Positions 1 through 41,737 of a stretch of DNA of 54,610 nucleotides are shown here, piece after piece. This stretch comes from a virus. Taxonomy: Duplodnaviria; Caudoviricetes. The notes beneath the pieces were generated by a model. It was not told the DNA's origin, did no database searches, and saw nothing but the letters and a program-made list of their open reading frames with translations. The first letter of the stretch is position 1. Every line of letters starts with the position of its first letter. The position numbers and the translations under genes were made by a program. The stretch lies in IMG/VR virus record IMGVR_UViG_3300018910_000023, positions 1 through 54,610 of that record. One strand, written 5' to 3'.

Positions 1-127
1 TTTGCGCTTGAACCATATTGATTAATCCTTCGCATCCTTTCTTTTGAATACTTTGATTATGCTTGGTCACATTCGGAATGGTGATCAACAGCAGGATGGA
101 GATCACAAGCATGACGACTAACATTTC
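1..127 (-). pseudogene. comGC: Competence major pseudopilin ComGC, 3' fragment (runs off window)
   Basis: Minus strand reads EMLVVMLVISILLLITIPNVTKHNQSIQKKGCEGLINMVQAQ. Confidence 0.93.
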
Positions 128-3362: not shown

Positions 3363-3635
3363 CAAAACCCCTTCTTTCAATTTTTTTGACATGGATAATT
3401 TTATCATTATTTTAGAATTTTTAATATTATTTTCCTTAGTTCATAGTGTAATGTAGGGGGGAGATGATCAGGCATATCTATTTACTGCTATGTAGTGTGA
3501 TGTTTAAATTCACCCAAATCAAATCAAGATATGTCATATATACCAAATAATGATGTTTCTTCTAATAAATCCTTTTAGGTTTGCCTCATTGCATTTATAA
3601 TGATATTGATAGCGAATGATGAGGAGGTATCTAGC

Positions 3636-4493
3636 TTGAAAGATTTTTGGATGTACGAAGATGACGATCCATACACTTTGAAGAAAGTAACAGAGAAAGA
3701 TATTCTGAAAGCTGAAAAAAAGTTAGGTGTAATACTCCCGAAGGAGTATAAAGAGCTTATTCTTCAACAAAATGGTGGATACATCAATTATAATGCTTTC
3801 CCTACTGATCAGCCTACTTCCTGGGCAAAGGATCATATTGAATTTGACTATTTATTAGGCTTAGGAAAAAAAGAAGGAATTCTTGAAAGCCAGTATTTAA
3901 TTAAAGAATGGGGATTGCCTGACAACCTTATTCTAATTCATGGGGATGGCCATACTTGGGTTGCTTTAGACTATAGAGATACAAAAGAAAATCCACCTGT
4001 TCATTACTTTGATTCAGAGCTACAAGAAAATTTTAGATTAGCAGATTCATTCGGGGAATTTCTCTCTAAACTATACACAGATGATTCGGTTGATATTGAT
4101 GATATTGAAAACTTACAGGGAATTAATCCTGAGGACTATGAACTTTCATATATTACACCTGATCATCCAGATGCAATTACAAAAGAAGAAGCTGAAAACA
4201 TCCTAAATAAAAATATAGATATAGAGCTACACAGGGTTACTTTATACCCTATTCAAAGTTTTGAAGATCTAAAATGGCTGCTTACCAAAATAAAAGAAAG
4301 TTCGGCAAATGCCAATCGTGCAACTGCAATAGAACTAGCCAGTGCTTTAGAAACAATCATTTCTTACCATAAAAATTTAACATTTGATAATGAAGAAACA
4401 AGTCTATTGGTTAAGGAAATCGTGGCTACGCTTGAAAAACTGAATGACTCAATTTTAGATATACTCCTTTCACAAATAAAAGATTTTTTTTAA
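3636..4493 (+). CDS. SMI1/KNR4 (SUKH) family immunity protein
   Basis: AEKKLGVILPKEYKELILQQNGG and GDGHTWVALDYR..ADSFGEFL motifs; RBS ggagg before TTG 3636. Confidence 0.88.
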   Translation: MKDFWMYEDDDPYTLKKVTEKDILKAEKKLGVILPKEYKELILQQNGGYINYNAFPTDQPTSWAKDHIEFDYLLGLGKKEGILESQYLIKEWGLPDNLILIHGDGHTWVALDYRDTKENPPVHYFDSELQENFRLADSFGEFLSKLYTDDSVDIDDIENLQGINPEDYELSYITPDHPDAITKEEAENILNKNIDIELHRVTLYPIQSFEDLKWLLTKIKESSANANRATAIELASALETIISYHKNLTFDNEETSLLVKEIVATLEKLNDSILDILLSQIKDFF

Positions 4494-6597: not shown

Positions 6598-6861
6598 TCA
6601 TTTTGTTAATCCTTTTTGTTTTAACACTTCTTTTTGCTGTTTACCTTTACCGGTGACATAGTTGTTTTTAAACCAAGCGACCAACGTCGTGACGATTGTA
6701 AAAATCGTAGAGCAAGTTAAATACAAAGCGTCGGCCAGCGTATTGACCTGGTCCTCACTGATCGGCAAAGCTGCCTTTCCAAACATGATCAATGTCTGGT
6801 TTACCAATGCAATAAAAAGAAGCACCGTCCGGACGACCGTGCCTTTATCAAAGTTTTTCAT
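6598..6861 (-). CDS. xhlB: SPP1-family holin
   Basis: [16 protein letters not shown]...AWFKNNYVT; next to endolysin. Confidence 0.9.
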
Positions 6862-6876: not shown

Positions 6877-7170
6877 TTATTTCTGCAGTAGATTATAAAA
6901 AACAGCGATTGCGCCGCCAATGATACCGGTGCTGACCGCTGTAATGATCGCTCCAGTGATGCTGCGCTTGATCCAAGTTGTGTTTTCCTCGATCTTGTTC
7001 AGCTTTTCATTGATAGAAATGATTTGCTGATCATGACGGTCAGTTGTTCTTTCGAGAGTAGTAATCCGCTGATCTTGTGTTTTTTGATCTGCTTTAATTT
7101 CTGCGATTTCTTTTTGTAAAACATCATAATCATTCGGTTGCGTCATGTCCCCTAATCCTCCTGTTCTCAC
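6877..7170 (-). CDS. xhlA: XhlA-family holin-associated protein
   Basis: Coiled coil, NTTWIKR, C-terminal TM segment; alternative start at MTQP. Confidence 0.88.
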   Translation of the reverse strand: MRTGGLGDMTQPNDYDVLQKEIAEIKADQKTQDQRITTLERTTDRHDQQIISINEKLNKIEENTTWIKRSITGAIITAVSTGIIGGAIAVFYNLLQK

Positions 7171-19943: not shown

Positions 19944-20090
19944 GTTTATTAGCTCCTTTTCATTTTGTCTTTAGGCAATAAAAAAACACTCTCAGTGTTT
20001 GAGAGTGTTATGGTAAAATATTCATTGTACATAAAGCTCGGCTCCCTCAAGGGTGGTCTGGCTCACTCCCTGAGAAAGGGGGTGAAGCCT

Positions 20091-20177
20091 ATGATGTCGA
20101 CGTTTCAAAGTTTATCTTTGATGTTCATGTTCGGGATGTTTATCCTGGCATTGTTGACATACATTAAAAAGAAGTAG
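20091..20177 (+). CDS. bsrH: Type I toxin peptide, BsrH/BsrE-like (28 aa)
   Basis: MMSTFQSLSLMFMFGMFILALLTYIKKK; RBS gaaagggggtg; same position as the skin bsrH/txpA locus. Confidence 0.85.
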   Translation: MMSTFQSLSLMFMFGMFILALLTYIKKK

Positions 20178-20350
20178 ACCTCCCTTGAGCCGCTAAACTT
20201 TTAGGGAGGTCCATTTATTTTTCACCTTCGGAGCCAGCCCCTTGACGGGCCCGCTTTGTGTACAATGACTCGACTGTTGGCCGCAGTCGGGTCTTTTTTA
20301 GTATATGCGTTTTCTAAAGAAGTAATACCTCAATCATGTTGTAGTCATTT
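20165..20350 (-). ncRNA. Putative antisense antitoxin RNA for the BsrH-like toxin (ends approximate)
   Basis: Minus-strand terminator GACCTCCCT..AGGGAGGTCTACTTCTTTTT; TGcTATATT -10 near 20370. Confidence 0.55.
20267..20299 (+). terminator. Toxin mRNA terminator
   Basis: gactcgactg-ttggccg-cagtcgggtc-tttttt. Confidence 0.8.
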
Positions 20351-31939: not shown

Positions 31940-33235
31940 TTACCTCCTCTCTCTATTTGGCCGCGGCCGGATTTTTGGTTTCTCCTTCAGATCGGTGACC
32001 TCGTAATCATCTAGGGCGTACCAGATGGCTGAAAGAGTGTGGGGATCGATCTTGAATTCATCTTCAATGATGTTTCCCAGCTTGTCCTTTTTATAGGTCA
32101 GTGGTTTGAGTTCAAAAATGGTGTTCCTGCATTGGTTGGAACAAATGATCTTTTTAAACCGCTTGATCTTTTTCGTATACTGTAGGCGCGAACCTTGATA
32201 CTTATGTGCTCCCACCATATTGAAACCCTGCTGCCGGAAATACTGAATCGTTTTAGGCTCCGCTGAATCAGCTTTGATAAGCTCCTGGGTTTTCTTGAAT
32301 TCTTGGAGTTCCTCTGCTGTTCGATCATCCGTCATTCCTCGCTTGTAATACTCCCAGTAGACATAAAGATATTTTTTCTTATGGTCCACCGCAAGCCGGA
32401 CAACTGCGTTATAGGATTCCTCAAAACCAAAGTCCATTCCTACCCGCTTGATGGGACGGTCAATGTTCGAGATGGCCTGCATCACTTCATCGTGTGGCCA
32501 CTCTTCAAACTGAGGAAAAACCCGAACCCCATTCACACCAAAATGACCTTTCCGGGCGATGCGGTAAAGGTCTGGATCGTATTCTTTCAGTTCATCCAGT
32601 TGCCTTACATAGCTTTCTGGCAGAAACAAATTATCGTCCGCCGTGGAATGATGATAGTATGTGTCATTTAAAACGATCGTTCGCTTTTCATACAGTTCTC
32701 TATCATCCAGGACAAATCGATTGTTCAGATCGTCTTTAAAGAAATGCTTATACGTCCAGTTGTCTTCCCCGACCGGATTCGTGGAAAAAATCATATGAAG
32801 CGGTAGCGTAGGATGCCGTAGACGGCCGAGAAGCTCTTTAAAGCCTTCATATTTGACCTCTGAACATTCCTCAATCCAAATGATCGAAATGTTATTGATC
32901 GATTTCAGTTTAGCCGGCTTATCCAGCCCCTTGAAGATGATCCGGCTGCCATTTGGAAACCTGACCTGCATTGGGGATGTCATACACCTCACGATATGAT
33001 CAATCTCTAAATCATTGATGATCTCTTCAAAAAGAGAGAATGTAGAATCCCGGTGAGTGTCATACACTTCACGAATGACTAATACTGTTCGTTTTTCTTC
33101 AAGAAGCTTCAAAATGAGCTTGAGAGCAATGTGATAGCTTTTGGATGATCCGTAACCGCCGACGAGCAGCTGAAATTTTTGATTCCAGTCAAAAAGAAAG
33201 TCTTCGAAATGCGGATTGACTTCTTTTACCGTCAT
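31940..33235 (-). CDS. xtmB: Terminase large subunit (PBSX family)
   Basis: GGYGSSKS Walker A, IWIEE Walker B, STNP, GMDFG. Confidence 0.95.
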
Positions 33236-34101
33236 TTGCCGTCACCCTTACGAGTTATTGTGATATTCACAGAATTGTCCACAGGGCGGGCAGTCAAGCG
33301 TTCAAGCTCTGCCTGTTTCGTCTCGTTTGAAAGATAGATGCCGCGGAGCTTCAATTCATGCTCATCCATTAAGCAAATCATATCGTATTTCTGACGAATG
33401 GCTTTCAGCCGCTTATCCGTTACACGAGTGAGCGCCTCTTCAATGTTCAAGATGTCATCAATCGCCCTCATTTCGGTTTCTTCGATTTCAGTCACAACAA
33501 GACGCTCATTCATGACCGGGACTGGCTTAACAAGTCCGTTTTTATCCGGCGTCTGGACGATATCCTTTACCTTACGCATTTGTTGCAGCACGCGGCGCTG
33601 TTTTTCAGATAGACCGTTTTCTATCCGGCTGATCCGCTGCATCATTCTCCGCTCCCGAAGGCTCAACTCCCTGATCGTTAAATCAATTTGAAAGAGCGGG
33701 TCCGTTTCGATTTCTCCGAACAGCTGCCGCTCATCCTCATTTAAAAAATCCCACATGATCGTTTCATATTCGCCGGTACGAACGGAATTTTTATTCCCTT
33801 TTGGCGCGGCACCGCCCCTATTCCCTTTTGCATTTTCGTTTCCAGGTGGTGCCTTTCCGCCCTTGTTTCCTTTGGCGTTTTTGTTCCCTTTTGGAGCGCC
33901 AGGACGAAAAGAAGCGCTCCCATTCGATTTAGGAGCGCTCCCTTTGAATTTTTCTTCCCATTTATCTGTTGCTTTCCACTTGCGGACGGTGCTGCTTGAG
34001 ACGCCCAATTCATCCGCGATGTCTTTTAACTTCTTGGTTCCGCTGCTTTCTTTCCATAAACGGAACGCTTCGTCACGTCTTGGATCACGCGGTCTCGCCA
34101 T
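33232..34101 (-). CDS. xtmA: Terminase small subunit
   Basis: N-terminal HTH (KLKDIA..TVRKWK..DKW); APxGNxN repeats. Confidence 0.92.
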
Positions 34102-34863: not shown

Positions 34864-35130
34864 ACCGAATAAACACCACCTTGCGCTATTCGCTTTTTTT
34901 ATTGAAATGGCTCCAGCAAATCTCCAGGAGGACGCTAAGATTTCAAGGAGCCATGTGAAGAAAATGACTTCCTGTTTAAACGGGATCTCACCGCTTGCGT
35001 TCCCCGTGACTATCGCGCGCAATACTGCATAGACTCCAGCCGCTCCTCCTGAAAAGCTGATGACCTTCATCATCATTCGATACATCCGAGTTCACACTTG
35101 ATAAGGGAAAGGTGCGTCTCCCATTCTGGC
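34864..35130 (-). ncRNA. Putative structured RNA in the late-operon leader
   Basis: Several stems with G-U pairs and a 9-nt pseudoknot pairing. Confidence 0.5.
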
Positions 35131-35134
35131 CATT

Positions 35135-35208
35135 AAAAAAGCGGCCACCAATCACCTGCACAACATCATGTGCAAAAGATTAGTGTCCGCAGGCTCTCCG
35201 TCTTGGAC
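35135..35208 (-). promoter_or_regulatory. Attenuator: 26-nt motif overlapping an intrinsic terminator (late leader)
   Basis: GTCCAAGACGGAGAGCCTGCGGACAC then TAATC...GATTGGTGGCCGC-TTTTTT. Confidence 0.7.
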
Positions 35209-35234
35209 TAATGTATTCACGTTCGTTTTCTTGT

Positions 35235-35297
35235 CTCTATCGTATGACAAAATGAAATAAAAAAAGTCCCCCAATTTATCCCCCTTTTTGTCGGATT
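35235..35297 (-). promoter_or_regulatory. Putative activator-dependent late promoter
   Basis: TACGAT -10 at 35239-35244, no -35, upstream GGGGGA direct repeats. Confidence 0.5.
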
Positions 35298-35316
35298 TTT
35301 ATCGAATTTGAAGTAT

Positions 35317-35351
35317 AAAAAAACCTTGAAAGGCAAAAGCATTTCAAGGTT
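35317..35351 (-). terminator. Terminator of the toxin-immunity operon
   Basis: AACCTTGAAA..TTTCAAGGTTTTTTT. Confidence 0.75.
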
Positions 35352-35360
35352 ACAAATGTT

Positions 35361-35855
35361 TTATTTAATTTTGTTGTTTTTCTCGTTGTGTATATCATTA
35401 ATGTCACATTTGGCAATATGAATTTCGTAACTCTTTTCTTCTGAAAATATTTGTGCAATAATCCCTGTCGACTTGTCAGCTATAATGAAATTTCGAGATT
35501 CTGAAGTTTGCCAAAGCTCTCCAATTGCCAAAGTGAAGTCAAGAACTTGAACATTTGCCCAAATTGGAAGAGGACAATTCGGAACAAGTATTAACCACTC
35601 TTTTTTTTCTTCTAAAAAATTTAGTGAGTTTATAAACCAAGAGATATAAGCTTCATTATCGTCTCCAATTGGTTTAGAATAAGTTGGCTTAGAATCGATT
35701 AAACTAAATTGTTCCAAAGGAGTTTCAAATACTTGTAACCACTGAGATTTAGAACTTTCAAACTCTATAAACACTAAATTAGAGAATTGTTCTAAAACTT
35801 TTTTTGCTTTCATAAATGCTATTTTTTCTTGAATGTTTTTTTGCCGATGTGTCAT
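35361..35855 (-). CDS. Putative immunity protein (YxiF-like) of the LXG toxin
   Basis: Directly downstream of the toxin; AT-rich. Confidence 0.75.
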   Translation of the reverse strand: MTHRQKNIQEKIAFMKAKKVLEQFSNLVFIEFESSKSQWLQVFETPLEQFSLIDSKPTYSKPIGDDNEAYISWFINSLNFLEEKKEWLILVPNCPLPIWANVQVLDFTLAIGELWQTSESRNFIIADKSTGIIAQIFSEEKSYEIHIAKCDINDIHNEKNNKIK

Positions 35856-35867
35856 TATAATCCCTCA

Positions 35868-37487
35868 TTACTTATTGTAATAAATATGATGGTCTCCATT
35901 AGAACCATAAATATTAGAATATCTTTTCTTCTTAAAGTCATAATTAAATGGATTCTCTTTTTCATTTGGCTTCCCTGCATGTGCATGCAATTTTCCGTCA
36001 TTTGTGTGTTCAGCAACGACCATTTTCCCGTTTGGTGTATCGTATTCATAGTAACGTCCATGATGGGTTGGATTTGAACTATATTCATAGTTTTTATAGT
36101 CTACACCCTTCTTAGTTACATCATCGCCAACCTGCCATTGACGTGTAGGTTGTTGTGACCTTGGGACTCCAGCTAAATCTTTTGCCTGATTGAGAGCTTC
36201 TTTTCTGTTAAGATTAGGCGTAGCATTAGCACTTCTCTCGGCATTCGAAACCCTTTTCGCCGTCTTCGCACCTTTATTCGCTTTGAAAACATATTTTCCT
36301 ACCTTGACTACTTTAGTAGCGGGTATGACAGAAACACCGGACAGGATACGGTCAGTGACGGATAGTTTTTCACCAGTCACAGGGTCAACACCTGTTATCG
36401 CTCTATAACCATCATAACCACCGGACAATTCTCCAACTGTGTCTTTAGCCCAATCAAGAGCTTTTTCAATGTCGCTTTTCTTCACTCTGCTTTCCGGTAT
36501 ACGACTGACAAGTTCGTATTTCACTTCACCGCCGGATATGTATTTTCGGACAATTTGACCGTTTGAATAAAGCATGTACGAACCGCCGACGAAGTCCTTG
36601 CCTGTACCGATTTCATCGGTGACATCCACAGAACCGAGCTTTTTGTATCCCTTCATATTATATACTTTGCCTTTGATGATGCGAATACCTGTATCAATCT
36701 TTTTAAAATGATCTGCTTTGGTAAGTGAATCGACTTCAGATTCTTCTTGATCGGACAATTTTTTTAGCATGATTTCCATCGGCGAAGGCTCAGCATTTTC
36801 TAACTCTCCCTTTAAACCGCCGACCGGACCGTTAATGTTTGTATTCTCATCCGGTTTTAAAATTGAGCCTTTTTTATAGCTTGTAATCTCGATTTTGGGG
36901 CCTGTGTACATTTTCTCAAGCTCTGTGATGTATTTTTGCATCGTTTCAAGGTCTTGTTCAGCAGTTTTAAGAGCGCTTGTCTGTTCGCGGTCAAAAGTGT
37001 GCAGCTTTTCAATTGTCTGATTGATTTCCTTTAATGCTTTCCTGTTCTGTTCGTGAAAATCGCTGTCATTCAAATCAGGCAAATCGACAATGTGGCTGAC
37101 TTTTGCGATCGTGGCATTTGTTTTAGATACCAAACGCTTCGTTGTGCGGTCGGCCGCATTCACCCCTTGTTCCAGCTCGTGTTCGAGAAAGGTTTGCGAA
37201 ATAAATCCGTTGTGGTTTGGTTCAAGAGAATTCAGCGAGCTTTTCAATTTCTTCAGCGTGGAACGATATTCCTCTATGAAAGTATCATAGAACCGCAAAA
37301 AAGGGGTGTGGCACTCCTCGTAAAAGGCGCGGATCGCGTCGCCGCCTTTTCCTTTTAAAGCATCATCAAGTGATGTAATGCCCTTAACACTTTTTTTGAC
37401 TTTGGCGATTTCGTCTGATTGATGTTTTAATTGTTCCAGCGTTTGATCAATGGCTTTGTGCAACGCCTGAACATCAAGAGTTTTCAT
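35868..37487 (-). CDS. LXG T7SS polymorphic toxin with PT-TG domain and C-terminal Tox-HNH-EHHH-like nuclease
   Basis: LDDALKGKGG LXG; AITGVDPVTGEKLS PT-TG; AKDLAGVPRSQQP..EH..H.H..HH. Confidence 0.9.
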   Translation of the reverse strand: MKTLDVQALHKAIDQTLEQLKHQSDEIAKVKKSVKGITSLDDALKGKGGDAIRAFYEECHTPFLRFYDTFIEEYRSTLKKLKSSLNSLEPNHNGFISQTFLEHELEQGVNAADRTTKRLVSKTNATIAKVSHIVDLPDLNDSDFHEQNRKALKEINQTIEKLHTFDREQTSALKTAEQDLETMQKYITELEKMYTGPKIEITSYKKGSILKPDENTNINGPVGGLKGELENAEPSPMEIMLKKLSDQEESEVDSLTKADHFKKIDTGIRIIKGKVYNMKGYKKLGSVDVTDEIGTGKDFVGGSYMLYSNGQIVRKYISGGEVKYELVSRIPESRVKKSDIEKALDWAKDTVGELSGGYDGYRAITGVDPVTGEKLSVTDRILSGVSVIPATKVVKVGKYVFKANKGAKTAKRVSNAERSANATPNLNRKEALNQAKDLAGVPRSQQPTRQWQVGDDVTKKGVDYKNYEYSSNPTHHGRYYEYDTPNGKMVVAEHTNDGKLHAHAGKPNEKENPFNYDFKKKRYSNIYGSNGDHHIYYNK

Positions 37488-37754
37488 AGCATTCTCCTCT
37501 AATACTAAAGTGACATACCTCGAAATATTTTACCACTTTATAGAAAGGAATTGGTGAATAAATCCTGTCAATCCATGAAAATGAATCTTATTGAGTAGGC
37601 CTTATACCCTAACATGTTCGACTTGTTATTTTCAAATGCCAAAAAAGGAAAATCATTGTCAAAAAATGATCCTTTATGTAAAATGAAACATATGCAGAAA
37701 AAGGAAATGAATAAGTTAAATTTTTTGAATATTTAAAACGAATAAATAGAAAGG

Positions 37755-38864
37755 ATGATAGGTTTGAGTACGATAGCATTCGAGGAAGTCGGCCAAGCCA
37801 TAAACGACTGGTATAAAGCCATCAAACAGCATGACTTTTCCAAAGCCGCAGCCATGAGGGAAGAAATCGAAAACACGTTGCCGAACATGGCAGAGAATCA
37901 AACCGTGTTACTATACTTCAACCTAATTGATTCACGCTATAAGCTAATGACAGAGGATTATGACGAATCCGGAGCATTACTGGATAAAGTAAAAGCCAGA
38001 GCCTTAGAAAATAGTACTGATGACATGATTCAATATTATTTTTATTTCTTCTCTGGCATGTATGAATTCCATCAAAAGCGTTATGCGAAAGCCATTATGA
38101 TATACAAAATTGCTGAAGAGCGCTTAAAAAAAATACCTGACGAAATTGAAAAAGCCGAATTTCATTACTACCTGTCAAAAGCATATTTTCAAATCAATCA
38201 GGAAGTATTCTCGATTACCCATGCTAAAATTGCTTATGACACATTTAAAGCGCATGAAAGCTATAAAGAAAAAACGATCAACTGTGAAATCATGTTAGGT
38301 TCAAATAAGCTCGATCTTTTGCTTTATGGGGAGGCACAAAAACACTACGAAAATGCAAAACGTATCGCGGAAGAAAACGGCTTCCGACTCACCGAAAGTT
38401 TCGCTCTTTTTAACCTTGGGGTCTGTTTTGAACGTCAGAAAATGTTCATCGAATCTTCAAATTGCTTCAAACAAGCATTAAGCATCCCTGAACATTTAGA
38501 ATCGTTTGCCGCCGTCCGTTCAACTTACATGTTGAGCAAAGTTCTGTTTCAATTGGGAGCTTGCGATGTTGCCTTATCATGGTATGAAAAGGCATTGAAA
38601 AGAGCGACAGATGAAGGAGAACAAGAGTATCTGGCGAAATTAAATATTGTATACGCTTTGTATGCGGAGCAAAATGACCAAGAGGTAAGAAAAAATATCG
38701 CAATTCTCGAAGAAATGGAGCTTTGGACAGAAATCGCCGATCTCACAATGGAAATCGCTGAATACTATAAGAGTGAGGCTGACTATGAAAAAGCCGCATA
38801 TTACTTTGAACACAGTCATTTTGCGAAAGACAAAATCATCAAAATATCGGAGGCGTTATTGTGA
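37755..38864 (+). CDS. rap: Rap-family TPR regulator (aspartate phosphatase)
   Basis: VGQAINDWY, MAENQ.VLLYFNL, YYFYFFSG, IPDEIEKAEFHY. Confidence 0.93.
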   Translation: MIGLSTIAFEEVGQAINDWYKAIKQHDFSKAAAMREEIENTLPNMAENQTVLLYFNLIDSRYKLMTEDYDESGALLDKVKARALENSTDDMIQYYFYFFSGMYEFHQKRYAKAIMIYKIAEERLKKIPDEIEKAEFHYYLSKAYFQINQEVFSITHAKIAYDTFKAHESYKEKTINCEIMLGSNKLDLLLYGEAQKHYENAKRIAEENGFRLTESFALFNLGVCFERQKMFIESSNCFKQALSIPEHLESFAAVRSTYMLSKVLFQLGACDVALSWYEKALKRATDEGEQEYLAKLNIVYALYAEQNDQEVRKNIAILEEMELWTEIADLTMEIAEYYKSEADYEKAAYYFEHSHFAKDKIIKISEALL

Positions 38865-38989
38865 AGAAAAAAACCATTCTGTTCAGTCTGCTTACTGTTT
38901 CAGCTTTATTGCTGGCCGCTCCCTTAACACAAGATACAGCCTTTTCAAACAAACCTATTCAAATCACTGAAAAACCAATATCCATCTAA
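38861..38989 (+). CDS. phr: Phr signalling pre-pro-peptide (42 aa), absent from ORF track
   Basis: GTG overlaps rap stop; RBS ggagg; MKKKTILFSLLTVSALLLAAPLTQDTAFSNKPIQITEKPISI. Confidence 0.88.
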   Translation: MKKKTILFSLLTVSALLLAAPLTQDTAFSNKPIQITEKPISI

Positions 38990-39066
38990 AAAGGGATCTT
39001 ATTGAGAAGAAAATTTTAATGGCAACGGGATTAACAGCAAGTTATTGAAAGTGTGCACTTTGGTTT

Positions 39067-39099
39067 AAAAATAGCGGACTCAGGAGAGTCTGCTTTTTT
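39067..39099. terminator. Bidirectional terminator
   Basis: aaaaat-agcggactc-agga-gagtctgct-tttttt. Confidence 0.75.
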
Positions 39100-39109
39100 G
39101 TTACAGCCC

Positions 39110-39493
39110 TCAGATAATCCCAAGAGCTGTCGCCAAATTATAGATGGCCCGCCGTTTGACCTGATAGTATTTGTCCTTTTTCAGCCCCATCTCCATATAA
39201 ATCTCAATGTCCTTTATTTTTTGGGGAGAGAGATACTTGGCCTTTATAATCTTTAATTCCTCATCATCAAGGCTTTGTTTAAGTGCCCTGTCCATCTGAC
39301 AAACTTTCAATTCATTTAAAGAGTGCTGGTCTCTGAGCTGCGGGAAAAGGTTATTCATCCCGGCTGCTTCCCGTTCTTTCCGGTTTTCAAGCTGAACCTT
39401 TAAAGCCTTATATCTTTTCAGCTCACTTATAATCATATTTCTGACTTCTTTTTCATCTATAGGCGGCAAAAAAGTCAATTGTGTAGCTGACAC
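39110..39493 (-). CDS. ArpU-family late transcriptional activator (YqaQ-like)
   Basis: LDDEE..II..KYL..KD..IY..YYQVKRRAI..LA. Confidence 0.88.
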   Translation of the reverse strand: MSATQLTFLPPIDEKEVRNMIISELKRYKALKVQLENRKEREAAGMNNLFPQLRDQHSLNELKVCQMDRALKQSLDDEELKIIKAKYLSPQKIKDIEIYMEMGLKKDKYYQVKRRAIYNLATALGII

Positions 39494-39507
39494 GCTAAAT
39501 CCCCCCT

Positions 39508-39577
39508 AAAAACAAAACAGACACCAAATAAACGCTATAAACGTCGATTTGGTGTCCGCAGGCTCTCCGTCTTGGAC
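39508..39577 (-). promoter_or_regulatory. Attenuator: second copy of the 26-nt motif overlapping a terminator, upstream of arpU
   Basis: GTCCAAGACGGAGAGCCTGCGGACAC-CAAAT...ATTTGGTGTCT-GTTTTGTTTTT. Confidence 0.7.
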
Positions 39578-39583
39578 GATAAT

Positions 39584-40801
39584 TTAATTGAGAAATGTCA
39601 CATCTGTCTGTAATAACTCAATATCATAAGCATCAAAGAAATCAATTAATTCTTCTTTAATATTCAGCCTATCATCATTGTCAAACTCATCATTGACCTC
39701 TAATACTACCTTGCAATATAAGAATGTAATTGATTTATCGTACTCTAAAGGTTCAAGTCTGGTCATTTTTCGATGAAAAAACTCATCAAATAAATCTACC
39801 ATATCCTCTTCAGGTAAGTCATCTCTTGTTACAAATGAAATATGAATTTTAGTTAATTCATCTCTATTTTTCATAGCCAAATCGCGCTCAAAATCTGATT
39901 GATAAAAATTGTAGTAAGTACTAATTTCTTTGACTTCAGATGCTGCATTTTTATCCACTATATCTTCATTTCTTTCAATAAAACCAATGGAACTAAACAT
40001 ATAAAATTGCTTCCCTGTGTTAAAATAAAATTCATTCAGCAACTCTATTCTTGGTCCTATTATTTGCCCTTTTAATTTATACCACCAATCTTCTTTCTGC
40101 TCATCAGTTAGAAAAATAACGTTTGCATTTTTTTCCTTTGCATAGTCTATTACTTGCTTCCATAATATAAAATCTCCGTATTTATCTTGTAACATAAGTT
40201 CATTAAAGTACTTGATTCCAGATTTCTTTTTAAAATCCTTATATCCTGGAGGTATATCATTTATAAAACGTTTATCTGCTTCTTTTTCCAGCTCTAAGAT
40301 TTTTTCTTTACTGAAGGGATTACCTACTCGGTTATCATATAACTTTGTAATTTTATCTTTGATAAAATCATTTCTTAACAAATCGGGTTCGTGTTTTATG
40401 TTCTCTTTCAATTCTCCAACTTGTTTCTCACTTACATTTCTTAAATTTGAAATAAACAATTCTATATCTTCTTTATGTCTTTTTTTGAAATCCTTTAGAT
40501 CTTCGTTAAGAATGTTCCTTATTTTATCAAATATTTTTTCAAAAGAATCACATACTTTTTGATATGAATCTTTTTGTTCTGTTATTACTTTTTTCCTGTT
40601 GTAATGATATTCCAAAGCCACTTGATGTGGCATCCAAAGTTGATGTTCATATTTCTCAAGTAAAGTCAATATCTGATTAGTTGTATCTCTTGAATACCGA
40701 TAAAGATTTAAAAGAACATTAGTATCTAATACGATTATTGAATTTACCCAAATGTTCTCATCATCTTTTTCAAAATAAAACTCTTTAAAAGAATCTTTCA
40801 T
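39584..40801 (-). CDS. PIN-like domain protein (PIN_8/DUF4935 type)
   Basis: IVLDTNVLLNLYR, PHQVALEY, PPGYKD, GDFILW, TDEQKEDWW. Confidence 0.88.
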   Translation of the reverse strand: MKDSFKEFYFEKDDENIWVNSIIVLDTNVLLNLYRYSRDTTNQILTLLEKYEHQLWMPHQVALEYHYNRKKVITEQKDSYQKVCDSFEKIFDKIRNILNEDLKDFKKRHKEDIELFISNLRNVSEKQVGELKENIKHEPDLLRNDFIKDKITKLYDNRVGNPFSKEKILELEKEADKRFINDIPPGYKDFKKKSGIKYFNELMLQDKYGDFILWKQVIDYAKEKNANVIFLTDEQKEDWWYKLKGQIIGPRIELLNEFYFNTGKQFYMFSSIGFIERNEDIVDKNAASEVKEISTYYNFYQSDFERDLAMKNRDELTKIHISFVTRDDLPEEDMVDLFDEFFHRKMTRLEPLEYDKSITFLYCKVVLEVNDEFDNDDRLNIKEELIDFFDAYDIELLQTDVTFLN

Positions 40802-41533: not shown

Positions 41534-41737
41534 TTAAAAAAGTTCGTAATCATCAAATCTGACTCTGAAAATCTTACCTTTTGTTGTTTCAACAACAGTA
41601 GAACCATGTTCCACAGCTTGATATTTTTTCACCTTGCCGCTATGTCCATCAAGCACAAGGAGAGTCACTTTTCCTTTTTCAACTTGCTCTGTAAAAGTTA
41701 GATCTGAATTAACGTCTACTTCTTTTCCTCTAGCCAA
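41534..41737 (-). CDS. xtrA: XtrA/YqaO family protein
   Basis: GKV.LLVLDG..G......EHG.T.VET.KGK..RV. Confidence 0.82.
   Translation of the reverse strand: MARGKEVDVNSDLTFTEQVEKGKVTLLVLDGHSGKVKKYQAVEHGSTVVETTKGKIFRVRFDDYELF

Follow-up and report, generated by a model that had tools for sequence, protein, structure and literature searches.

The virus record IMGVR_UViG_3300018910_000023 of IMG/VR (Duplodnaviria; Caudoviricetes) carries on its minus strand two identical copies of a motif of 24-26 nucleotides (nt), one ahead of the late-regulator gene arpU and the other ahead of the terminase genes, and each copy runs into a predicted intrinsic terminator. On balance, this motif is probably an antiterminator hairpin placed before a late-regulator gene of the xpf, arpU or yqaQ type, composed of a GUCC/GGAC stem, an internal loop, an inner stem of 2-3 bp and a tetraloop, with the small early protein XtrA as the likeliest factor acting on it. 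An RNA switch of this kind is well supported by comparative analysis. The record is complete-looking and was analysed over its full length of 54,610 nt, which is referred to as the window; all coordinates are window positions.

Two identical hairpin-terminator elements

An exact search for the 26-mer GTCCAAGACGGAGAGCCTGCGGACAC gave two minus-strand sites in the window, 35183-35208 and 39552-39577, and allowing up to 3 mismatches added no further one. None of 100 dinucleotide shuffles gave two matches of the 26-mer, and the flanking sequences of the two copies are unrelated. The repeat is genuine and lies well outside what chance would give, so that the exact search and the shuffles bear out the original prediction, in which an identical 26-mer had been placed at two minus-strand sites with unrelated flanks. 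The hairpin core itself takes up 24 nt, at 39554-39577 in copy A and at 35185-35208 in copy B, to which the 26-mer adds 2 nt. The gene assignments made for the two sites hold as well, since copy A lies ahead of arpU (TIGR01637) and copy B ahead of the terminase genes (Pfam).

In both copies, the 3' end of the motif (from G19/G21, GCGGACAC) is also the 5' arm of a long hairpin that is followed by a U-run, and it is the last 4-6 nt of the core (GC-GGAC) that open this terminator hairpin. Terminator A (39508-39557, minus strand) has its stem at 39557-39520, GGACACCAAAU.../...AUUUGGUGUC, followed by UGUUUUGUUUUU in a U-rich tail that reaches to 39508; it shares GGAC with hairpin A and, in the consensus, the preceding GC as well. 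The stem of terminator B (35135-35190, minus strand) runs from 35190 to 35141, GCGGACACUAAUC.../...GAUUGGUGGCCGC, and ends in the U-run UUUUUU at 35140-35135. Above the shared base, the two terminator hairpins diverge in sequence, so that sequence and folds agree with the earlier claim that the motif opens two otherwise different terminators. The folds of the whole elements come to about -32 kcal/mol, with z of -3.3 and -5.3 for the two copies. The 26-mer by itself gives the GUCC/GGAC fold at -5.9 kcal/mol (z -0.7), which is no better than shuffles.

Conserved pairing in two types of hairpin

In the type-1 hairpin, the outer stem P1 pairs positions 1-4 with 21-24, the inner stem P2 pairs 10-11 with 16-17 (plus 9 with 19) and positions 12-15 form the tetraloop. 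Pairing was counted on 31 distinct 24-mers, 3 of 34 having been dropped as 7-mismatch forms without terminator context (loci L092, L025 and L060). It was found that 94.0% of the cells were paired, compared with 17-48% when the partners were slid. Both sides changed at pair 1-24 (G-C to A-U) and at pair 10-17 (G-C to C-G); pair 1-24 was seen as G-C, G-U and A-U, pair 10-17 as G-C, C-G and G-U, and pairs 3-22, 4-21, 9-19 and 11-16 vary to G-U. These counts back the internal GTCC/GGAC pairing that had been proposed to exclude the terminator, and extend it by the inner stem 10-11/16-17 and the tetraloop.

A second type of hairpin, GUUCU-A-CCAG-NNNN-CUGG-AGGAC, occupies the same position with the same terminator base in genomes that have XtrA and lack the type-1 motif, and was present in 44 of the 401 genomes sampled from the order. 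Its alignment holds 31 distinct sequences, 1 of 32 (L199:2411-2439) having been dropped with 4 mismatches and no terminator; 97.8% of the cells were paired, compared with 44-55% when slid, and the loop varies freely. The first inner pair changes from C-G to U-A in 2 distinct rows (11 of the 56 places listed in 7 genomes). Types 1 and 2 have the outer stem and the terminator overlap in common and differ in the apical stem. The overlap of 4-6 nt between hairpin and terminator is constant in every printed element of either type that has a recognisable terminator. Since positions 19/21-24 belong both to the 3' strand of the hairpin and to the 5' arm of the terminator, the two folds are mutually exclusive. 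Judged from these alignments, the hairpin is a conserved structure, the 3' strand of which always forms the first 4-6 nt of the terminator.

Terminator conservation and energetics

The terminators were compared in an alignment of 33 elements, made up of 34 selected ones minus L150, L152 and L112, in which the terminator is degenerate or missing, plus the two window copies. RNAalifold predicted a terminator stem of 18 bp from position 19, with compensatory changes on both sides in 10 of the 21 predicted pairs and many G-U pairs besides, and a U-run follows the stem in all 33 elements. With its G+C-rich stem, U-run and compensatory changes, this part of the element is a predicted intrinsic terminator. 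A covariance model built on the 33 elements matched strongly at two places of the window and no more, copy B (81.1 bits) and copy A (73.8 bits) on the minus strand, scores that are partly due to construction, as the window copies were among the training elements. On the plus strand, the same two places scored 19 and 18 bits, and this difference between sense and antisense indicates that the structure is an RNA feature of the sense strand.

The two folds are far from equal in energy. When the hairpin is forced to form, copy B comes out 9.4 kcal/mol less stable than in the terminator fold and copy A 12.5 kcal/mol less stable (+9.4 and +12.5 kcal/mol), the hairpin alone in its proposed structure contributing -1.7 kcal/mol. 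It is thus far too weak to beat the terminator unaided, which implies that a stabilising factor would be needed. In the hairpin state, 4-6 unpaired nt lie between the residual terminator stem and the U-run. A spacer of such size strongly lowers intrinsic termination.

Distribution of the element among prophages

The exact 24-nt core was found in 74 IMG/VR contigs, mostly singly and sometimes in double copy, in phage phi105 and, among named Bacillus genomes (subtilis, pumilus and licheniformis groups), at 24 loci. When up to 3 mismatches are allowed, it is present in 48 of the 91 genomes of the family around genome G001, usually in 1-7 copies each, A at position 13 being the commonest variation among these 91. 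The sequences upstream of the motif bear no relation to one another, and it often adjoins the stop codon of one gene or another. On its downstream side, nearly all printed elements continue with a hairpin of base GGACAC.../...GUGUCC and variable top, a U-run, a ribosome-binding site and a start codon. Degenerate elements exist (L150, L152, L112 and L165). Locus L024 has two hairpin-terminator elements 227 nt apart (6758-6781 and 6985-7008), the first of which is the compensatory A1/U24 variant. Copy B of the window belongs to a class, here called class B, in which the motif follows a conserved leader of about 110 nt (35209-35320, minus strand; 25 of 28 distinct upstream sequences).

Four classes of late regulator are found behind the element, each of them behind hairpins of both types. 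One copy in genome G042 stands 23 nt past xtrA (PF17356) and about 75 nt before a sigma-like gene (NF005385, 220 bits; 'positive control sigma-like factor'), which is followed by a terminase small-subunit gene; this order of xtrA, sigma-like gene (xpf) and terminase is presumably that of PBSX. Other sigma-like or ArpU-like genes follow two further copies in G042, and in phi105 the element is succeeded by an open reading frame (ORF) for a basic protein of 59 amino acids and then by an ArpU-like gene. These positions support the predicted gating of the late activator in many prophages and, in the window, of the late operon as well. In the literature searched, which did not cover McDonnell et al. 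1994 on PBSX regulation or supplementary tables, no published description of the element or of an XtrA function was found.

A small and very basic ORF stands directly after the terminator in many loci with either hairpin type (L077 3092-3268 in phi105, L132, L176 and L181-L183). Its product has a K-rich start, a conserved L(S/T)ERE/DL...MGV and an RG-rich C-terminus (RGRGGAFRQK-like), and could be a further RNA-binding player. Neither the element of the PBSX-type locus nor either window copy is followed by this ORF.

XtrA as the candidate factor

The xtrA/yqaO homologue of the window is found at 41534-41737 on the minus strand (PF17356, 62 bits against a cut-off of 29.7), and its product is the candidate trans-acting stabiliser. 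The early genes of the PBSX-type locus of G042, of the window and of phi105 were compared by tblastn. XtrA was the only early protein of the PBSX locus with a match in phi105, and among the early proteins of the window only XtrA, a protein of 91 amino acids and ArpU were matched there. PF17356 is present in 47 of 50 motif-bearing records, including every one of the 35 that are at least 90% complete, and is found likewise in 59 family genomes out of 91, none of the 48 with the motif lacking it; the co-occurrence with xtrA that the original prediction had called for is therefore found in 35/35 near-complete records and 48/48 motif-positive genomes. Twelve XtrA loci were taken from genomes without a type-1 motif at up to 3 mismatches, and 9 of them have a hairpin-terminator downstream, the other 3 being remnant-like. 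The xtrA gene often stops 5-23 nt before the hairpin.

The type of XtrA also follows the type of hairpin. Each hairpin was paired with the nearest upstream XtrA on the same strand, as assigned by a pattern classifier, and the two types matched in 80 type-1 and 25 type-2 cases, with 2 more type-2 cases recognised by eye that the pattern had missed. No XtrA was found in the locus for 117 hairpins (106 of type 1 and 11 of type 2), most of these loci being short. Two type-1 hairpins were paired with an unclassified XtrA, namely L171, which belongs to a type-2-like subgroup, and L093, a weak and doubtful match. A single change of hairpin type (branch support 93/90) is enough on a maximum-likelihood tree built from 89 XtrA sequences, a number as low as this being reached by none of 500 label shuffles. 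Genome G010 carries both hairpin types, each with its own XtrA type, from which it follows that the host is not the sole determinant. As both hairpin types precede all four regulator classes, the regulator does not determine hairpin type either; the regulator class is shuffled against hairpin type, and the link between XtrA and hairpin has thus outlived changes of the downstream gene.

The AlphaFold model of XtrA is all-beta with five strands (predicted local distance difference test, pLDDT, 84.3). In a protein atlas, the matches were to XtrA and DUF3954 clusters only, and homologue searches returned one protein in one case and 30 matches in a search of representative sequences. Long proteins of about 650-4400 amino acids (P0004, P0010, P0014 and others) were seen to contain 3-11 XtrA-like repeated stretches, and the fold may hence serve as a repeat module in large proteins as well.

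Taken over the compared genomes, XtrA is the best candidate for the factor, with a roughly even chance of being it. The naming of XtrA in the original prediction is therefore upheld on comparative grounds, by co-occurrence and by the tree; the expectation of an RNA-binding protein met with no recognisable RNA-binding fold and with a near-neutral charge. A bolder proposal is that XtrA/YqaO (PF17356) constitutes a new family of sequence-specific RNA-binding antiterminators, which would read the apical stem as a specificity code of at least two classes and open the terminator before the sigma-like late activator; this is conceivable, and we put it somewhat short of probable.

Proposed mechanism

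The start codon of arpU lies 15 nt past the end of the U-run of terminator A. This leaves no room for a promoter, and arpU can therefore be reached only by readthrough. In the proposed default state, the terminator would fold and stop transcripts started in the early operon or in accessory genes expressed in lysogeny, and the late activator would be kept silent in this way. During lytic growth, a trans-acting factor, most likely the early protein XtrA, would clamp the nascent hairpin. The clamped hairpin would block the bottom 4-6 bp of the terminator and leave the residual stem 4-6 nt from the U-run, so that RNA polymerase would read on in vivo. In the phage of the window, the same factor would license the synthesis of ArpU and afterwards the late operon driven by ArpU. 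Such licensing in two steps is plausible, given that an accessory cassette parts arpU from the packaging genes and that the module is present twice, whereby one factor would serve both steps.

In the usual account of PBSX induction, loss of the repressor is followed by the sigma-like factor Xpf and then by the late operon. A strong terminator with a competing hairpin directly before xpf, and before its skin-like and phi105 counterparts, points to a further, undescribed checkpoint between early and late expression. If the proposal of an XtrA antiterminator family were true, there would be an unrecognised timing step in the induction of PBSX, skin and phi105 and in prophages of a sizeable share of the Bacillales, and duplication of the module would insulate the late genes of mosaic phages from cargo expressed in lysogeny. 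In addition, the terminators would keep cargo promoters that are active in the lysogen from driving the late genes, and the element would explain how constitutive cargo (PIN-like, Rap and LXG toxin-immunity genes) can stand beside lethal late genes without leak. Should XtrA prove to be the factor, a role could be assigned to a widespread, uncharacterised protein family, and a new pair of protein and RNA recognition partners would be available in a genetically easy host.

Alternative explanations

Several results weigh against an antiterminator hairpin clamped by XtrA. Covariation in type 1 is thin: the 31 variants hold 2 changes on both sides, and of 500 shuffles, 24 attain its covariation score and 55 its count of both-side pairs; in type 2 both-side changes are confined to one pair. 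Three class-B variants break P1 (A23C twice and C24G once), with the terminator improved or kept. Foldseek searches of the XtrA model against the PDB and BFVD gave nothing at E <= 0.001, and the XtrA profile gave nothing significant against PDB sequences, the best match being bL25 at E 0.66. The median isoelectric point of XtrA is 6.1-6.8 and its net charge about 0. The type-1 core is invariant while XtrA sequences are only 35-45% identical, which would suit a conserved host partner too. An XtrA subgroup that is sister to the type-2 clade adjoins type-1 hairpins, so that branch and hairpin type do not correspond one to one. As relatives share labels, the tree result speaks for co-inheritance rather than co-evolution, and co-inheritance of XtrA and hairpin in these sequences is not proof of binding. 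Three raw RNA runs gave 0 reads on the xtrA-xpf stretch of G042; one 26-kb contig of an RNA library spans this stretch and cannot resolve starts, ends or a single transcript. Members of the XtrA subgroup just mentioned, of the L171 type and type-2-like, adjoin type-1 hairpins in at least four loci. Three of its sequences (L230, L231 and L233, from G005, G018 and G046) read MRLI.LD...HGETKI.T..GKVTRVKWDEGELF and stop 5-7 nt before a type-1 hairpin; the subgroup is a natural test case for specificity.

Some of these points would be accommodated if the same switch had another stabiliser, be it a host protein, RNA polymerase itself, the sigma-like regulator or the small basic protein. RNA polymerase as the partner has a precedent in the put RNA of HK022. 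Such a stabiliser would fit the invariant type-1 core, the lack of a nucleic-acid-binding signature in XtrA and the subgroup near the type-2 clade that sits with type-1 hairpins, and the basic protein with its RG-rich tail is encoded right after the terminator in many loci. We nevertheless hold it to be rather unlikely, because the presence of both hairpin types in G010, each beside its own XtrA type, argues for a specificity factor borne by the phage, the regulator class is shuffled against hairpin type, the basic ORF is missing after the PBSX-type element and both window copies, and no other early protein is common to PBSX and phi105 at the level of BLAST. That the terminator is a plain insulator and the sequence 5' to it has some other RNA role, in processing, stability or translational control, would agree with the strong and well-formed terminators, with the marginal stability of the hairpin alone (-1.7 to -5.9 kcal/mol) and with the class-B variants that favour the terminator over P1. 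An insulator does not, however, account for late-regulator genes with ribosome-binding sites about 10-15 nt from the U-run, which leaves no room for a promoter and makes readthrough the only way to reach the gene, and an independent element would have no need of the constant overlap of 4-6 nt; we regard this explanation as improbable. It also agrees poorly with a transposon-sequencing study (PMC9836290) that reports protection of cells by insertions in xkdB, xkdC and xpf, polar and direct effects being unseparated; the protective xkdB and xkdC insertions fit transcription of xpf from upstream.

The motif might instead act as DNA, as an operator, as a loading site of the Q type or as a promoter for the sigma-like factor in the left arm of the terminator. 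Its 24 bp hardly vary, even at positions that the RNA model leaves unpaired, GTCC/GGAC forms an inverted repeat, and the conserved class-B leader, which possibly bears a promoter, lies just upstream. Yet the changes in the stems mostly keep RNA pairs, G-U included, and some are compensatory; type 2 keeps its stems while the loop varies freely; the element is strand-specific by the covariance model; and most loci show the motif straight after a stop codon, the genes being unrelated and no promoter being conserved. With no Q-family protein in the window and no sigma-A-like site beside either copy, a DNA site is very improbable. Recombination could also leave identical copies that mark cassette boundaries and have no regulatory role, and the two copies do flank a 4.3-kb segment (arpU and the Rap, LXG toxin and immunity cassette), and two copies are also present in related contigs that have a comparable cassette (L005, L004 and L035). 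Most elements are nevertheless single and hold the same functional position in many prophage lineages, and conservation against diverged flanks, together with a second type that keeps the architecture, indicates selection on function; a mere by-product of recombination is hardly credible. Two further candidates were rejected. A late promoter with its start inside the hairpin disagrees with the pairing pattern and with the lack of a conserved upstream promoter in most loci. Ribosome-mediated attenuation, suggested by the upstream stop codon that often abuts the motif, was set aside as an explanation for the element at large, class-B copies having no ORF within about 110 nt.

Comparison with known antitermination systems

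The antiterminator hairpin was compared with the ribonucleic antiterminator (RAT) elements and CAT domains of BglG, SacY and LicT from Bacillus subtilis and E. coli, to which it had originally been likened. In these systems, a weak hairpin is clamped by a small protein, with a local, non-processive effect at one terminator. The layout is common to both, in that a hairpin, imperfect and with an internal loop, reaches into the 5' arm of a terminator, whereas the PRD and control by sugar are absent here and the target is the late-regulator gene of a phage. Searches for membership were negative throughout. At gathering score, only BsrG was found in the window with Rfam 15, and no family matches the element, so that the Rfam search proposed earlier gave no assignment. 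The bglG-cis-reg model scored 21.5 bits on phi105 against a gathering score of 80, and window positions 35050-35350 yielded no listed match for bglG at E values up to 10. The CAT domain PF03123 had 0 matches at E <= 1 in the six frames of the window, and XtrA aligned to a profile of 12 CAT domains with an hhalign probability of 0.4%. Hence, the likeness to BglG/SacY stands for the overlap layout and fails for membership by Rfam, PF03123 and hhalign alike.

The N protein and nut boxB of lambda offer a likeness of another kind, namely a small early protein, a short hairpin in the early transcript, a delay between early and later expression, and hairpin variants that pair with protein variants. 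N is a basic, disordered, arginine-rich peptide that acts processively with Nus factors, on a hairpin without terminator overlap. XtrA, on the other hand, is predicted to be all-beta and is near neutral, and the overlap of its presumed hairpin with a single terminator suggests local rather than processive action. Lambda Q and Q-like proteins hold the same place in the cascade, with a terminator directly before the late genes that late expression has to get past. Q itself is a DNA-binding protein that engages the late promoter and then travels with RNA polymerase. The evidence here points instead to an RNA hairpin, although a promoter other than sigma-A is possible in the class-B leader; the Q family PF06530 had 0 matches at E <= 1 in the window. 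TRAP, HutP, PyrR and GlpP are small, partly beta-rich Bacillus proteins that choose between terminator and antiterminator folds via leader RNA. Their sites are triplet repeats or other motifs, which are absent from the element. Another antitermination system of Firmicutes mobile elements with two components is conAn, which the available description (PMC8191782) presents as bipartite and processive, carrying transcription of a long operon past terminators in Gram-positive conjugative elements; compared by that description only, it would differ from the present element in being processive.

Gene context in the window

On the minus strand, xtrA is followed by an ORF of 91 amino acids, a PIN_8-like gene, hairpin and terminator A, and arpU with its own terminator. 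The ArpU-family late transcriptional regulator gene (39110-39493, minus strand) was identified by TIGR01637 (81.8 bits against a cut-off of 43.1) and by phrog_248 (E 5.6e-23), its product having no Pfam match, and the terminator scan placed a terminator-like hairpin downstream of it at about 39077-39094. The PIN_8-like gene (39584-40801, minus strand; PF18476, 212.8 bits) lies directly 5' of hairpin A and has a near-consensus sigma-A-like promoter site at 40879-40852 (TTGACT-16-TATAAT). It looks like cargo expressed in lysogeny, and without the terminator its transcript would read into arpU.

Beyond arpU follow a plus-strand Rap-like gene, an LXG/HNH toxin gene, a 164-amino-acid ORF, a terminator and the class-B leader of about 110 nt, and then hairpin and terminator B, a 77-amino-acid ORF or structured region, and the terminase genes. 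The accessory cassette between the two copies (35361-38864, mixed strands) was identified by Pfam matches; it holds the Rap-like (RapH-like TPR) gene at 37755-38864 on the plus strand, the gene of an LXG/PT-TG/HNH polymorphic toxin at 35868-37487 on the minus strand and the 164-amino-acid ORF at 35361-35855 on the minus strand, which may provide immunity. The genes of the terminase small subunit (33232-34101) and large subunit (31940-33235), both on the minus strand, are the first recognisable late genes after copy B, with Pfam matches to PF10668, PF04466 and PF17288 over 31940-34101.

The class-B leader is situated downstream of the terminator that closes the toxin-immunity cassette. The promoter scan found no sigma-A-like site in this leader or next to either copy, and the leader may hold a late promoter dependent on ArpU. 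Its words TTGTCATACG ... GTGAATA recur with other spacing between xpf and the terminase gene (G042; L133 at about 3581-3696). The xpf-terminase region of G042, which also has a terminator-like hairpin, may likewise be a late promoter for sigma-like factors. Just past terminator B, the stretch at 34864-35130 on the minus strand is conserved across class-B loci; it is overlapped by the 77-amino-acid ORF, the sole match of which was phrog_34225, with none in Pfam or NCBIfam. Elsewhere in the window, the BsrG match (RF01412, 139.7 bits), a type I toxin-antitoxin RNA, is located at 20028-20292 on the plus strand.

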